Source: Planctomycetota bacterium (GTDB lineage Bacteria; Planctomycetota; UBA1135). Taken from it: a stretch of 64,000 bases of DNA. The notes under the pieces were generated by a model. That model saw only the letters and a list, made by a program, of their open reading frames with translations, was not told where the DNA came from and did not search any database. A program made the translations under genes and the position numbers. Numbering within the stretch: the stretch's first letter is position 1; every line of letters begins with the position of its first letter. Where the stretch lies: assembly GCA_030748415.1 (NCBI GenBank), contig JASMMA010000003.1, forward strand, positions 81,988 to 145,987, given 5' to 3'. Positions 5,968 through 36,755 of the stretch are shown one piece after another.

Positions 5968-8445
5968 ATGAACATGGACAATGACGTTACCCGAGCTCCA
6001 AAACAGGAGCAGCTGAAAAACCTCCTGGGTGAGGTGCGGCGCAAGCGAGAAGCATCTGAGCAAGAGCTGTCCCCCGATGTCATTCTTGAGGAGGGCAAAC
6101 CTTTTGGTGATTATCACCTCCTTAGAGTGCTCGGTCGCGGTGGGATGGGTGTCGTTTGGGAAGCGGAGCAAGTCTCTCTAAATCGTCGTGTTGCTCTCAA
6201 GGTTCTCCCTCCCCAATCGGGTTTATCTTCACGCGGCAAAGAACGCTTCATGCGAGAAGCTGAAGCCGGCGCCCGACTGAACCATCGCGCCATTGTTTCT
6301 GTTTATGAAGTAGGGGACCACAACGGTGTTCTTTATATCGCGCAGGAGTTGGTTGATGGGGGACTTACTGTCTCGGACCACCTTTCTGAAATGCGCAGTC
6401 GCGGTGACCTTCCCGATGGTTATTACCGTGGCGTTGCTGAACTTTTCCTTGAGCTTGCCGAAGCCTTGGAAGTAGCACATGAAGCTGGGGTTGTTCATCG
6501 CGACATCAAGCCTGCAAACATTTTGATTACGATGGGGGACCAGCCAAAGATTGCAGATTTTGGTCTTGCCACTGTTGAAGGGACGGTTGACCTTTCGCGA
6601 ACAGGTGAACTTGTTGGCTCGCCCTTCTATATGTCCCCTGAGCAAGCGATGTCCAACCGCATGGGCATTGACCACCGAACGGACATTTTCTCTTTAGGGG
6701 CCACTTTCTATGAAGCGCTTACTTTAGAACTCCCATTTAAGGGTGACACTTATCAAGAAGTTCTTTCAAGCGTGGCAACAGAGGACCCTGTTGAACCAAG
6801 AAAATTGCGGAAAGGAATTCCAATTGACCTTGCTGTAATTTGCATGAAGGCCCTAGAAAAAAATCCGGACAAGCGGTATCACAAAGTGGGGCCGCTTGCA
6901 GATGACCTGCGCCGCCATCTAGAGAATCGCCCGATTCTTGCAAAAGCTCCTAGCACATTTGTTCGGCTTAGGAAATGGACCGTGCGGCACCCCGTTCAAA
7001 CTATTGCGGCGATGGCGCTCGTTCTAGTTTCAGGTTCTTTAGTGCAAACTGTCCTATCCAAGCAAGCCGAGAGGAAAGCTGTTGTTCAACAATTAGCAGA
7101 GGCCGCCCGCAACAAGCAAGCCCTCGAGTTCATGACTGGTTTATTTGACCAAGACAACCTTGAAGCGGCCCTTCCTGGAGAAGGGGGGCGAGATTTGATT
7201 GTGCGGCTCTTGGACTTTGGCTGGAATAGCGTTCAAGATGATTCTTTGCAGGACCCTGAATTTGCGGCAAACATTTTACAAACCATTGGGGGGGCCTATC
7301 ACAACGCTGGATTCCCTCTCAAGGCTGATGAAGTTTTGCGAGAAGCTCTAGTCGAAATCGAAGGGCTAACGGGGCAGAGTGCATCCCTACGCCTTCAGGC
7401 TCAAAACGCTCTCGCGGGAGTTCTTATTGACCGTGGCTTTTTCACTGAAGCCGAGAAACTCCTTCTTGATATCCCAGAAGAGGAACGGTCCCTAACTTCA
7501 AACACCTTACTTGCCTCTTCTTGGGCTTGGCTGGAGCGATATGAGGAAGCGGACAAGCTCCTATTAGAAGTTGTGCGCTCCTTTGAGGCTAACGAAAAAA
7601 GTTCGGAAGTGTTGCGCGCCCAAAATGTTCGTGGAGAAATCTTTTTGCGGTCGGGCGATTTAGATAGTGCGGTTTCAATTTTCGAAGAAACTCTTACGGC
7701 TCGCAGAAAAGTCGATGGCGTCCGAGCAAAAACAACCCTGACCTCTCTCATGAACCTAGCCTCATGTCGTTTTCTTCAAGGGAAATTAGACGATTCAGCA
7801 AGCCTCTTTCAGGAATGCTTCGATGGCAGAAAAGATGTTTATGGAAACCAGCATCGAAGCACTTTGAAGGCCTTGGCCGGTCTTGCAAACATTTCTTACA
7901 CGAGAAAAGAATACCTAGCCGCTTCACAGCAATTCCAGGAAGCCCTTGATGGGTATCGTTTTTCGCTAGGTAAGAGCGAAATGGCGCGAGACCCCGATGT
8001 CCTCACCATTGTCACCAACTTAGGGAAAAGCTTATGGAAGGCCTCAGGAGCGTCTGGCGAAGGCCCTTCTTTAAAAAGTGAGGCCGAAGGTCATTTGAAA
8101 TGGGCGCACTCCAATGGGATTAAACATTTGGGAGAGGATTCTCTTCAAGCGGCGCGATTCTCCCATAGCTATGCTCAGTTCCTAATCGAAGAGAAACGGT
8201 TTCTGGACGCAAAACCAATCTTGCAACAGGTCCTTGTTGTTTCAGAAGCCGAACTTGGTCTCGAAAATTCCTTGTCCCAAAAGGCTGGGGCAAGACTGGT
8301 TCTGGCGATGGCTGCTTCTGGTGAAACCAAACCAGCCCTCGGCCTTGCTGAAAAACTACTCGCCCACGCCACTCCCGGAAGCCAAGAGTTCAAAGATTTG
8401 TCTGCCTTAACCTCGGCCTTGCGGCCCAAGCCAAATGGGGAGTAG
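5968..8445 (+). CDS. Ser/Thr protein kinase with a TM segment and C-terminal TPR array
   Basis: Hanks kinase motifs are present: GRGGMGVVW, VALKVL, HRDIKPANIL, DFGLA, SPEQ. A TM (TIAAMALVLVSGSLV) follows, then about 450 aa of TPR-like helical repeats. Confidence 0.9.
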   Translation: MNMDNDVTRAPKQEQLKNLLGEVRRKREASEQELSPDVILEEGKPFGDYHLLRVLGRGGMGVVWEAEQVSLNRRVALKVLPPQSGLSSRGKERFMREAEAGARLNHRAIVSVYEVGDHNGVLYIAQELVDGGLTVSDHLSEMRSRGDLPDGYYRGVAELFLELAEALEVAHEAGVVHRDIKPANILITMGDQPKIADFGLATVEGTVDLSRTGELVGSPFYMSPEQAMSNRMGIDHRTDIFSLGATFYEALTLELPFKGDTYQEVLSSVATEDPVEPRKLRKGIPIDLAVICMKALEKNPDKRYHKVGPLADDLRRHLENRPILAKAPSTFVRLRKWTVRHPVQTIAAMALVLVSGSLVQTVLSKQAERKAVVQQLAEAARNKQALEFMTGLFDQDNLEAALPGEGGRDLIVRLLDFGWNSVQDDSLQDPEFAANILQTIGGAYHNAGFPLKADEVLREALVEIEGLTGQSASLRLQAQNALAGVLIDRGFFTEAEKLLLDIPEEERSLTSNTLLASSWAWLERYEEADKLLLEVVRSFEANEKSSEVLRAQNVRGEIFLRSGDLDSAVSIFEETLTARRKVDGVRAKTTLTSLMNLASCRFLQGKLDDSASLFQECFDGRKDVYGNQHRSTLKALAGLANISYTRKEYLAASQQFQEALDGYRFSLGKSEMARDPDVLTIVTNLGKSLWKASGASGEGPSLKSEAEGHLKWAHSNGIKHLGEDSLQAARFSHSYAQFLIEEKRFLDAKPILQQVLVVSEAELGLENSLSQKAGARLVLAMAASGETKPALGLAEKLLAHATPGSQEFKDLSALTSALRPKPNGE

Positions 8446-8454
8446 AATCCAGTT

Positions 8455-8835
8455 ATGCGTTGGTTCTTCCTAGCGGTTGCTCTGTTCTCCATCTTGTCGT
8501 GCGGGGTGGTGGCACCTCTTTCTTCAACTTCTGACCCAAACACATTTCGGGTTTCGGAAAATCCTCAAAGGGGGCGACTCGCCTGCTTAGAACTGAAGGG
8601 TGCCTTTGGGGAGTCACTGGGTTGTGTCGGTCACACCGTTTTAGTCGGAGAAACTCCTCAAGAAGTCGCCAACAGTCTTTGCGGTAGTCTCTGGGAGGGC
8701 TTCGGAATCAAAACCCAAATCAAGGACGATCCTCGAGGAGGAGTGTTGATTGTTTTAGAAGACGGGGTGCGTGCGCGAGCAAGACAAACCCACCCGGACT
8801 GGAGTGGGAAGCATGTCCCCATCTTGATTAGGTAG
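8455..8835 (+). CDS. Small lipoprotein of unknown function
   Basis: It has a signal peptide with a lipobox-like ILSC. It begins 10 nt downstream of the kinase gene. Confidence 0.55.
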   Translation: MRWFFLAVALFSILSCGVVAPLSSTSDPNTFRVSENPQRGRLACLELKGAFGESLGCVGHTVLVGETPQEVANSLCGSLWEGFGIKTQIKDDPRGGVLIVLEDGVRARARQTHPDWSGKHVPILIR

Positions 8836-8846
8836 CCGGATTTCGG

Positions 8847-9080
8847 CTAACCGCCCTTTCCGCCTTTTATCAGAGAAAGAACTTCTCCAGGATTAGGAAA
8901 ACGACCGGTTTGAGCTTTGTCGAAGACAAGCTCGCCATCCACGCGCACCTCGAATATGCCCCCGCCGCCTGGAATGAGTTCGGCATCAACATCCAATCCT
9001 TCCTTCAGCTCAGCAGCCAGACCGGCCGCACGAGGCTCAAAGTTTCAGACCAAACAAAATTCAATGCTGATTTTTTTCAT
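8847..9080 (-). CDS. SelW/Rdx-family selenoprotein (CxxU) with in-frame UGA at 9047..9045
   Basis: The frame from ATG 9080 to TAG 8847 is open apart from one TGA. It translates to MKKISIEFCLV-U-NFEPRAAGLAAELKEGLDVDAELIPGGGGIFEVRVDGELVFDKAQTGRFPNPGEVLSLIKGGKGG. This shows the CxxU and IPG..G.FEV.VDG....GRFP hallmarks. An AGGTGA Shine-Dalgarno sits 5 nt upstream. Confidence 0.8.
9009..9034 (-). promoter_or_regulatory. Putative bacterial SECIS hairpin for the SelW-like gene
   Basis: The mRNA can fold GCGGCC-GGUCU-GGCUGC (9029..9013), starting 15 nt after the UGA. The stem extends by 4 bp past a bulged U. The GGUC apical loop plus bulged U resembles the E. coli fdhF SECIS. Confidence 0.5.
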
Positions 9081-9101
9081 GATTCTCACCTGCACCACAA
9101 T

Positions 9102-9178
9102 TGGTGGGCCGACCAGGACTTGAACCTGGAACCTACGAATTATGAGTTCGCAGCTCTAACCAATTGAGCTATCGGCCC
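9102..9178 (-). tRNA. tRNA with CAU anticodon (elongator Met, or lysidine-type Ile2)
   Basis: A 77-nt cloverleaf folds by hand: GGGCCGA/TCGGCCC acceptor, GCTC/GAGC D stem, GCGAA-CTCATAA-TTCGT anticodon arm, CCAGG-TTCAAGT-CCTGG T arm, and an encoded CCA. It is not initiator-like. The C4/C5 acceptor pairs are Ile2-like. Confidence 0.9.
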
Positions 9179-9228
9179 ATTCCTTGATGGGGATTGTAGT
9201 TACACCTGAATTCAGGTGCTACTTGTTT
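9136..9228. repeat. Repeat copy 1: 5-prime half of tRNA(CAU) plus 50 bp of its upstream region
   Basis: This 93-bp segment is repeated at 9860..9952 with a single mismatch (a at 9204 versus g at 9928). Confidence 0.95.
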
Positions 9229-9234
9229 GAAAGG

Positions 9235-9816
9235 TTACGCCAGCGACTCTTTTCCTAAAAACCTAGTGAGCAAAAAGCTCGCTGTTGCCCAAGGAATCAA
9301 ATAAAGAGCCATCGCCTTCATCGGTGGCGCAAAGAGCCGGAAATCAAGCCATAAGGGAAGGGCAAAGTCGACAACTCCAATAAACAGGCTCAGTCCCAAA
9401 ACACATGCCATCTGCATCTTGCCTGACGGAATGCTCCACTTGAAAACCAGCCAGGATGTGAAAAGAAAGGCTGCAAGCTCTACAAACAGGAACCGAAGAA
9501 GCTCGAACAGTGGACTCGTCCTGCTACTAAAGGCCGAGAAGTCTCCACCATTAGAGGTAATCGACCACCTCGCATGAGGCAATCGTCCGCCAGCCGCAAT
9601 TTCTTCTTGGACCGATTCAGAAGATTTATTCTTAGACATATCGATGACATCACCCCCAAAGTACAAAAAGTATTCGCCTACAAGCGGGCGACCCTGAGCA
9701 TCCTCGGGAAGATTCACGATGGCATTCGTGGCTTGGACCTGAAATGCTAAAAACATCAGCATGGAGATAATCCAAGCGGCGAAGCCAGCCTTAAGTCCTG
9801 CGCGAATCCAACTCAT
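9235..9816 (-). CDS. Hypothetical membrane protein (island cassette 1)
   Basis: It is 193 aa with an N-terminal TM and 3 to 4 C-terminal TMs. It is flanked by the 93-bp direct repeats, and the region is visibly AT-richer than its surroundings. Confidence 0.55.
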   Translation of the reverse strand: MSWIRAGLKAGFAAWIISMLMFLAFQVQATNAIVNLPEDAQGRPLVGEYFLYFGGDVIDMSKNKSSESVQEEIAAGGRLPHARWSITSNGGDFSAFSSRTSPLFELLRFLFVELAAFLFTSWLVFKWSIPSGKMQMACVLGLSLFIGVVDFALPLWLDFRLFAPPMKAMALYLIPWATASFLLTRFLGKESLA

Positions 9817-34655: not shown

Positions 34656-36755
34656 ATGTTTGTTTCACAAAAATCAATTTTCGCGGGCTTGCGGGTTGCG
34701 CTCTTCGGCGCTCTCCTCGCCTTCACCCCTGGCTGTCTAGGGGGTAGTAGTTCTACTCAACTAGAGGCATCTTTCGATCACGACGCAGTCGTTTTGAAGG
34801 ACTACCTCGGGAATGAACTATTGCTCGGAACGACTGAGCCTTACAGTCCTCGTAAAACTTGTGGGGATTGCCACGATTTCGAGCATGCAGAGCTCGGATA
34901 TCACTTTCAGCAAGGTCGAGCTGATGAAACCGGCGATGTGGTCGCAATAGATGATTTCTTTGGCGATGGCAGAGACTACATCGTTTCCTCAGGAATGTAT
35001 GGGAAGTGGTGACCTCCTTCCTCCGACGCCAGCCAGTTGGCCGGCAAAGACAACGCAAGCGCTTCTGAGATTGACAAGACTTCTTACTTTTGGGCCGGAA
35101 AATGCGGCGCGTGTCACCCTGGCGGTGGCCCGGGCGAATTCGACCGAGATGGACAGAAGTATTACGACCTGGAAACAGGCCTTTATGGCTACGAAAACTT
35201 AGGACTGACCGCTGGTGATGTTGAGTTTGATGGTGATTACAGTTTTGTAAGCCCATCTACCGGCTCACACATGGCAGCCAAGTGGGCGACAACCGGTGTT
35301 TCCGAGCCGGATTGCCTTTCTTGCCACAAAACTACCTGGACGGTCACTGATGGGAAAATCATGAACGGGGTTTGGCGTCAGGCCACCCTTCGCTCCATGC
35401 ACACCCTAGTTAATGACCTCGGGGAAACTGTTCCCGCCTACTACTCTGCGCCTACTGCAGGAATGGGATGGTTCTCCACCCTAGACTTCAAGAGCCTGCC
35501 GGCCGGCAAGCCCACTGAGGCAGAGGTTCTTCAAATTGACTACCAAGCTGGCATTGATGCTGGGCACTTGGAAGTGAATGCTGATGGATACCTTTCCTTA
35601 TTTGGGGATGTCATTTCCGACTCGCCTAATGATTTCGCTTGCTGGCAATGTCACACTTTTGCAGATAGTAAAAAACGGGGACGCTCTTGGTTTAATGCAG
35701 ATCAAGATGTGCACTTCGCTGCATTTACTCACCGCGACGATGATGACCCCAGCAACGATTTGGAAGATGGCGATAGCCAAGGCTGCATTGAATGCCACCC
35801 AAACAATGGCGAGCATGATTTCGCCAAGGGTAACGCGAACTTGCAGTCGGTTCGAAACCACACGGACTACAACAACTTCAGGTCATGTCGTGAATGCCAC
35901 ATGGAAGGCGGTAACAAGCACCCCGATGCAACCGTTCCTACCTCACCCATTCACACCGACGACGGACACCTTGATGTAATGTCCTGTGAGTTCTGCCACA
36001 TTCCTTACAAAGAAACGAAGAGCATGTTGGTTGTTGACAATGCCTCTACTGGTTCAACAAAATCATTCTGGACCAATGACGCGGCGCATGGATTTTCTTC
36101 TGGAAACCCAATGAATCCTGCTGACCCTATCAAGGACAAGTGGTATCCATCCGTTAAGTGGAAAACAGACTACGACGGTGTTGACCGCATTTTCCCAATG
36201 AAGGCGCTTTCTGTCATGTATTGGGGAGATTGGGACCAAAATGGAACTCCATCGGACTACACAGATGATGTCATCACACCTCTTATCTTGTGGCGTGTCC
36301 GACAAATAACAGGTGGGGCTGTTCTCCCAGGAACCTTGGACGATTCTGGCGATGGTGTTGCCGAAGTAAACACTGCTTCTGAAATTGCGGCTTACCTCGC
36401 TGCACTCAAGGGCAATGACAACTTTGGAAATCCTGTTGCTGTGACTCCTGTCCTTGTGAAGGGTGGCAACATTTGGTACGAAGACCTCGCAGAACCTGAA
36501 GGCGTGAATCATTTTGAGTATCATGGAACAGGGATTGCGATTGAATCTCTTATCCCATTCTCACTGGACCACAATGTGCTTCCTGCTTCCCGCGCCTTGG
36601 GCGCAAACGGCTCTTGCGGCACCTGCCACAGGGGCTTGAATGGTGGCCTCATGGCACCTGGTTTTGATCGGCTGATTTTGGAAGATCCCTACAACGAGCT
36701 GGGTTCGCCGGTATTTACAACACCGCGCGATTTGCTCGGAATCAATCCTTTCTAA
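34656..36755 (+). CDS. Octahaem c-type cytochrome lipoprotein; single reading frame interrupted by one TGA (35010..35012)
   Basis: ATG 34656, preceded by GGAGGG, opens MFVSQKSIFAGLRVALFGALLAFTPGC (lipobox). There are eight CxxCH motifs: CGDCH, CGACH, CLSCH, CWQCH, CIECH, CRECH, CEFCH and CGTCH. Track ORFs 34605..35012 and 35037..36755 share a frame and are separated only by the TGA. Confidence 0.55.

Follow-up and report, generated by a model that had tools for sequence, protein, structure and literature searches.

Selenoproteins of the SelW-like family have been described in bacteria since about 2005, and eukaryotic SelW relies on a SECIS element in the 3'-UTR together with SBP2/eEFSec. Among the selenoprotein families in the Sargasso Sea data, the SelW-like proteins ranked first in abundance; they have a CXXU motif and a presumed redox function (PMC1088965), and their selenocysteine (Sec) form outnumbers the Cys form in Sec-decoding organisms (PMC1794560). 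In the general model of the bacterial SECIS (bSECIS), the upper stem has 4-16 bp and bears an apical loop of 3-9 nt (PMC13188914, Fig. 2A). The loop has a G within its first two positions and follows the pattern N1-G-[G|U]-N-N2, where N1 and N2 can pair; it lies 16-37 nt past the UGA, and the MFE is at most -7.5 kcal/mol (PMC13188914). The SECIS of Escherichia coli fdhF is a 17-nt upper stem-loop located 11 nt from the UGA, in which SelB contacts the bulged U17 and the loop nucleotides G23 and U24 (PMC8659212).

We analysed a stretch of 64,000 nucleotides from a Planctomycetota bacterium, referred to as the window, and found that positions 8847..9080 on its minus strand hold a real small selenoprotein gene, an ordinary member of the SelW/Rdx family. 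The reading frame covers 77 codons from the ATG at 9080..9078 to the TAG stop at 8849..8847 and contains one TGA in frame, codon 12 at 9047..9045. The predicted product, with the TGA translated as U, is MKKISIEFCLVUNFEPRAAGLAAELKEGLDVDAELIPGGGGIFEVRVDGELVFDKAQTGRFPNPGEVLSLIKGGKGG. It has the redox motif C9-L-V-U12, the UGA at 9045..9047 (minus strand) supplying the second redox residue of the CxxU, and IPGGGGIFEVRVDGELVFDKAQTGRFP is found downstream of the motif. A Shine-Dalgarno-like AGGUGA could be read from the sequence at 9086..9091 on the same strand, 5 nt before the ATG.

An earlier note on this DNA had claimed the 77-codon frame from ATG 9080 to TAG 8847 with one TGA, the CLVU at residues 9-12 with the Rdx core, and an AGGTGA Shine-Dalgarno. 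The frame is borne out by translation, both protein features are present in it, and the AGGTGA is at 9091..9086. The note was also right about a gap in the minus-strand ORF track: the ORF list (table 11, at least 50 aa) has no minus-strand entry at the locus and gives only plus-strand ORFs of 85 aa and 68 aa. ORF finders miss the gene because its selenocysteine codon is UGA. Its description as unannotated is correct in that the gene is absent from the standard-code ORF list, a gap that any such list would give, but an NCBI HMM exists that would name the protein.

We consider it very probable that this SelW-like gene is a functional gene for a 77-residue selenoprotein, in which UGA codon 12 is decoded as selenocysteine via a SECIS element. 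The family membership is clear from the joined protein, which scores above the curated cut-offs of three profiles: Pfam Rdx PF10262 (68.3 bits against a cut-off of 22.6, E-value 6.7e-19, covering profile positions 1-73 of 74), NCBIfam TIGR02174 CXXU_selWTH (57.7 bits against 34.2) and NCBIfam NF041051 "SelT/SelW/SelH family (seleno)protein" (89.7 bits, just above the cut-off of 88). Both NCBIfam models are also matched by all 30 of the aligned homologues described below. The sequence search of the product against PDB matched 3DEX, 2FA8, 2OJL, 2OKA, 2P0G, 2OBK and the human MIEN1.

We predicted the 3D structure of the product using AlphaFold2 with 30 homologues, and the model has a pLDDT of 86.4. 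It contains strands at residues 4-9, 33-38, 43-47 and 50-54 and helices at 15-29 and 66-72, with the CxxU sitting between beta1 (4-9) and alpha1 (15-29). The predicted order, beta1-[CxxU]-alpha1-beta2-beta3-beta4-alpha2, is that of the thioredoxin-like fold of the family. Using Foldseek, the model is similar to 3DEX, 2FA8 and 2P0G with TM scores of 0.87-0.90 (rmsd 1.1-1.6 A over ~75 residues, 28-41% identity), and to the mouse SelW 2NPB and MIEN1 2LJK with TM scores of 0.67 and 0.75, respectively (identity 21-34%). Glutaredoxins and thioredoxins rank lower in the same list. By analogy with the family, Cys9 and Sec12 on this minimal thioredoxin-like fold would most likely alternate between the reduced state and a reversible selenenylsulfide, giving the protein the role of a thiol/disulfide-type oxidoreductase.

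The UGA is conserved across the related genomes. A six-frame search of 41 of them found a homologue in 33, all 33 with an in-frame TGA. This retention matches the predominance of the Sec form reported for the family. The homologue is present in all 25 genomes of the same family, covering 24 genera besides the window's own, and in 8 of the 16 genomes from other families of the order. We extracted 30 loci, each having the TGA at the CxxU position (30/30) with coding sequence kept downstream, so that the pattern of a stop followed by no conservation is not what these relatives carry; most of the loci begin at an ATG 10 codons upstream of the TGA. Seven residues (C9, U12, P16, A18, G41, K55 and P62) are the same in every one of the 30 sequences, and the UGA position aligns with the second (redox) Cys of the CxxC homologues. 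Past the UGA, the first, second and third codon positions have pairwise substitution rates of 0.38, 0.32 and 0.61, respectively; this codon periodicity shows that the region past the UGA is translated.

The earlier note had also claimed a hairpin GCGGCC-GGUCU-GGCUGC 15 nt after the UGA, with four more base pairs past a bulged U. In the window's own sequence the hairpin is present at 9029..9013, 15 nt past the UGA, with its loop G-GUC-U at 9023..9019, and past the unpaired U21 the sequence allows four more pairs in a row (C17-G42, U18-A41, C19-G40 and G20.U39). The extended stem-loop in the MFE fold occupies 9002..9042 on the minus strand, with lower helices beyond the unpaired U21 and C17 that belong to this sequence only. 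The MFE of the 50 nt starting from the UGA is -20.7 kcal/mol (z = -2.5), and 4 of 200 shuffled sequences are as stable; a 66-nt version of the stretch was also folded. The single-sequence fold is hence only modestly better than chance, and the strong support for the hairpin comes from the comparison with the relatives and not from its own fold energy.

The alignment of the 30 sequences has no gaps over the 63 nt surrounding the UGA, and therefore the spacing from the UGA to the loop is 21 nt (columns 7-27) in each of them. The RNAalifold consensus stem pairs columns 21-24 with 36-39 and columns 26-28 with 32-34, around the loop G29-U30-(C/U)31. Together with the pair counts and the frozen synonymous positions it delimits a conserved SECIS core at 9012..9030 on the minus strand (columns 21-39). 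Within the hairpin, third positions with fourfold degeneracy hardly vary, with C in 29/30 sequences at column 27, T in 30/30 at column 30 and G in 30/30 at column 33, and the third-position variation is 0.33 in the hairpin codons versus 0.61 elsewhere. G29 and U30 are invariant (30/30), column 28 holds G or A, and U occupies column 32 in 29/30.

The stem also covaries. The pair 24:36, formed by the wobble positions of two Ala codons, is kept in all 30 sequences with six double changes, and the wobble-to-wobble pair 21:39 is kept in 24 of the 30 with nine double changes. Compensated changes were also observed at the pairs 25:35 and 26:34. Compensations that change amino acids were seen too, in L029 (GCCGAC...GTCGGC), L048 (GCTTCC...GGAAGC) and L049 (GCGACC...GGTCGC). 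The covariation score of the full structure is 0.136 versus 0.081 for column shuffles (0/500 reach 0.136) and no more than 0.082 for slid partners. A 1x1 mismatch at 25:35 is tolerated in 16/30 sequences. The lower helices of the window's own fold are poorly conserved on the 30-sequence alignment, where column 21 is a U in only 5/30 sequences and pairs with column 39 in 24/30. We considered the lower stem and the bulged U as parts of the functional core and dropped them, as the alignment shows neither to be conserved.

We also compared 71 homologues drawn more widely, from many phyla. Each of the nine Sec forms among them has a hairpin at the corresponding site with a G in its loop, and the third positions in the hairpin region vary among the 61 CxxC forms. 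No stem was seen by eye at the SECIS site in the predominant CxxC type, CTQCRW...AAWMAQELL. An Rfam scan of 8700-9300 at a permissive threshold gave no SECIS family, only the tRNA, an antisense look-alike and chance matches. Judged from the comparison with the relatives, the hairpin is a conserved SECIS under RNA-level selection, with covariation.

The genome encodes the machinery to use such an element. We searched the window's own assembly, a metagenome-type assembly of 2.46 Mb in 68 contigs with 90.6% completeness, and found selA (465.7 bits), selB (282-307 bits, with profile positions 362-536 not covered by the match) and selD (299.5 bits), and tRNA-Sec with the anticodon UCA (C11:139604-139699, 71 bits), all four above the cut-offs of their models, so the check for selA, selB, selC and selD proposed in the earlier note came out in favour of Sec decoding. 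SelA, selD and tRNA-Sec are clustered within ~5 kb (contig C11, 134554-139699), the tRNA-Sec beginning ~90 nt past the end of the selD frame (112 nt past the end of the HMM match), and selB lies ~35 kb upstream of the cluster on the same contig. The machinery is on C11 and selW is on C33, and hence their assignment to one organism depends on the binning. SelD, for which the nearest named relative is 80% identical ("Planctomycetes bacterium UBA7888"), which points to an uncultured planctomycete as the probable host, is itself encoded with one in-frame TGA, with Sec at residue 16 in the context ...DYAACSG-U-AAKLPQGEL..., where SelD proteins have their catalytic Cys/Sec. Its hairpin has a z-score of -0.7, not clearly better than shuffles, and we therefore did not draw a genome-wide SECIS consensus from selD.

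Low-level read-through of UGA independent of Sec occurs in bacteria generally, and it could be argued that the codon is read here without SelB or Sec, by near-cognate insertion of Trp or Cys or through a general reassignment of UGA. We found nothing specific in favour of this explanation and consider it very unlikely. UGA is not reassigned and is otherwise an ordinary stop in this genome: TGA closes 268 of the 842 long frames, a second TGA is the terminal stop in 14 of the 30 selW homologues, and the only tRNA with a UCA anticodon is tRNA-Sec. Moreover, the UGA falls where the CxxC homologues have their redox Cys, and under this explanation nothing would account for a SECIS whose loop keeps an invariant G-U.

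The TGA could alternatively be a true stop, which would make the locus a pseudogene or an 11-codon micro-ORF with the downstream Rdx similarity as a decaying remnant. Under table 11 the frame does close at codon 12, leaving no minus-strand ORF of at least 50 aa in the list, and TGA is a common stop in this genome. A decaying remnant, however, would not be expected to keep the TGA at the same codon in 30/30 loci and in frame in 33 genomes of many genera, nor the downstream coding periodicity with the invariant P16, A18, G41, K55 and P62, nor a covarying hairpin where a SECIS is expected, and the complete Sec machinery in the genome also speaks against it. The comparative data effectively refute this explanation, and we regard it as extremely unlikely. 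That the real gene could be the antisense plus-strand ORF at 8910..9167 (85 aa), the only listing of a standard-code finder at the locus, with the minus-strand frame being incidental, is a vanishingly small chance: like the 68-aa ORF it has no Pfam match and runs antisense through the tRNA gene, and it is the minus-strand frame that has the strong family matches and the coding periodicity.

If the gene is read as a selenoprotein gene, as we prefer, the decoding would follow the established bacterial pathway. SelA would convert Ser-tRNA(Sec) to Sec-tRNA(Sec) using the selenophosphate made by SelD. With the ribosome at the UGA, the mRNA just downstream would fold into the hairpin with the loop G-GU(C/U)-U, and SelB-GTP carrying Sec-tRNA(Sec) would bind the apical G-U loop and deliver Sec to the A site. 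The binding of SelB to this hairpin and the insertion of Sec at codon 12 are what the conserved element and the encoded machinery would predict.

The gene follows directly after a tRNA gene with the anticodon CAU at 9102..9178 on the same strand (called tRNA-Met(CAT) by ARAGORN; Rfam tRNA, 72.5 bits). The distance from the CCA end of the tRNA to the selW ATG is exactly 21 nt, the figure given in the earlier note. We compared the three CAT tRNAs in the genome. One has the initiator hallmarks (C1xU72, GGG/CCC in the anticodon stem; C66), the one at C11:75498 has the acceptor stem G2-C71/C3-G70 like an elongator tRNA-Met, and the one at 9102-9178 has C4-G69/C5-G68, which we take to be TilS determinants. 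The latter is thus probably a tRNA-Ile2, with CAU modified to lysidine, rather than a tRNA-Met. The same tRNA also gives an antisense Rfam match to the Plastid-ycf2 5'UTR; this RNA presumably adjoins the plastid trnI-CAU, which would explain the match.

The tRNA and selW are probably co-transcribed, since 21 nt is too short for a promoter and no sigma-70 promoter was detected in a scan of 8600-9500. The transcript would comprise tRNA(CAU) and selW and end at a terminator-like hairpin, CCCACUC-CAGUCC-GGGUGGG with a U-rich tail, at 8779..8808 on the minus strand, ~40 nt past the selW stop (pattern scan and fold; consensus match only). The same-strand order tRNA(CAU)-selW recurs in six genomes of the family, namely the window's own (L021), L022, L025, L035, L036 and L042, with spacers of 11, 21, 39, 50 and 152 nt in the other five, and this recurrence implies a tRNA-mRNA co-transcript. 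We speculate, tentatively and with somewhat more doubt than belief, that in this family the selW mRNA may have no promoter of its own and be the 3' part of the tRNA-Ile2(CAU) precursor, its 5' end being produced by the 3'-end processing of the tRNA. If so, the expression of the selenoprotein would be tied to the transcription of the tRNA.

Several other observations were made around these genes. The spacer in L025 (11 nt) has no Shine-Dalgarno. The 152-nt spacer in L035 (L035:1723-1874) contains an exact 21-nt repeat of the 3' end of the tRNA (CAAGTCCTGGGCGGCCCACCA), 36 nt before the selW start, and resembles an att site, as would be left behind by an element that had integrated into the tRNA gene in the past. 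In the window, the flanking ORFs at 8455-8835 (plus strand, 126 aa) and 9235-9816 (minus strand, 193 aa) gave no Pfam match, and the former may not be a real gene because it shares sequence with selW's terminator-like hairpin, which is on the other strand. Further upstream, the plus strand encodes a Ser/Thr kinase with TPR repeats (5968-8445), a TrmB-like regulator and a MatE transporter.

What the earlier note reads from the sequence is correct throughout, its interpretation is supported, and none of the three refuting conditions that it names applies. The gene is of value for annotation and as internal evidence of Sec decoding, and it is not surprising. Standard-code gene callers would miss or truncate it, here and in at least 33 related genomes. 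The claim that the organism decodes selenocysteine is supported by selW, the Sec machinery and a selD with its own Sec-UGA, and selW and the selenoprotein gene selD are independent evidence that UGA is decoded as Sec when a SECIS follows. This raises the prior for other in-frame UGAs, e.g. the one in a multihaem cytochrome at ~35010. There, at 35010-35046 on the plus strand of the window, the hairpin GCCAGCC-AGUU-GGCCGGC begins 15 nt past the in-frame UGA, just as in selW, and has the selW arrangement of 3 bp, AxC mismatch, 3 bp and (A/G)GU(U/C) loop. Its fold alone is not better than shuffles (z = +0.5).

We also scanned the genome loosely for in-frame TGAs followed by a GU-loop hairpin. The scan gave 280 candidates, mostly in non-coding frames, and is too noisy to define the selenoproteome; the sole credible candidate by eye is ...WATW-U-GPC..., encoded outside the window near 203110 on the minus strand of contig C33. 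Its frame has 84 codons upstream and 263 codons downstream of the TGA, with a 9-bp hairpin bearing a GUU loop 21 nt downstream of the TGA, and is likely to encode a thioredoxin-fold UxxC selenoprotein. The alignment of the 30 selW sequences offers a clean case of a SECIS embedded in coding sequence, with the covariation confined to synonymous positions, and could serve as a lineage-specific template for finding more selenoprotein genes.

Compared with the known bacterial SelW-like selenoproteins (PF10262, TIGR02174, NF041051), the protein has the same size of ~75 aa, the CxxU after beta1 and the thioredoxin-like fold, and its gene shares with theirs the Sec-UGA followed by an in-frame SECIS; we see no essential difference. 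The SelW-related structures with Cys, i.e. 3DEX (SAV_2001), 2FA8 (Atu0228), 2P0G (Vibrio cholerae), 2OBK (Pseudomonas fluorescens), 2OJL and 2OKA, have the same fold and the motif at the same site, but carry CxxC instead of CxxU, are ~25 residues longer and are encoded by genes without the SECIS hairpin. The mammalian SelW (2NPB) and MIEN1 (2LJK) share the family, the fold and the site, with CxxU in SelW and CxxC in MIEN1. A Cys form (CAPC) in a Myxococcales MAG (L052:3001-3207) keeps GCGGCT-GGTCT-GGCTGC at the SECIS position, which may be a fossil SECIS from a recent Sec-to-Cys conversion like the cases in Figure 4 of PMC1794560. As an ordinary member of a known family, the gene leaves the knowledge of selenoproteins unchanged.

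The hairpin agrees with the general bSECIS model in each of its features. It has a 5-nt loop GGUCU on the 6-bp stem GCGGCC/GGCUGC, the loop reads G28-G29-U30-C31-U32 with G28.U32 able to pair, and both the spacing of 21 nt and the MFE of -20.7 kcal/mol are inside the ranges of the model. The comparison with E. coli fdhF is more mixed. Both are hairpins in the coding region just after the UGA, with a G-G-U-C loop and its essential G-U; in the window's own sequence only, the extended upper stem also begins 11 nt past the UGA and carries a 5' U without a partner, like U17. The fdhF SECIS has a stem of 4 bp above and 2 bp below the bulged U, and the SelW hairpin is longer, its unpaired U being flanked by 6 bp above and 3 bp below. 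Its loop can be drawn as 5 nt or as a GUC triloop with G.U or A-U as the closing pair, and the stem in the SelW family tolerates the 1x1 mismatch at 25:35 in 16/30 sequences. Of the fdhF-like features claimed in the earlier note, the GGUC loop and the unpaired U of the own fold are there, but the bulged U is not conserved in the relatives: its column pairs with column 39 in 24/30 of them, and the SelW family thus does not keep, in the 5' strand of the upper stem, the bulged U that SelB binding requires and that would mark an fdhF-type element. The SelW hairpin should therefore be regarded as working like the fdhF SECIS without being a copy of it, and as belonging under the general bSECIS model.
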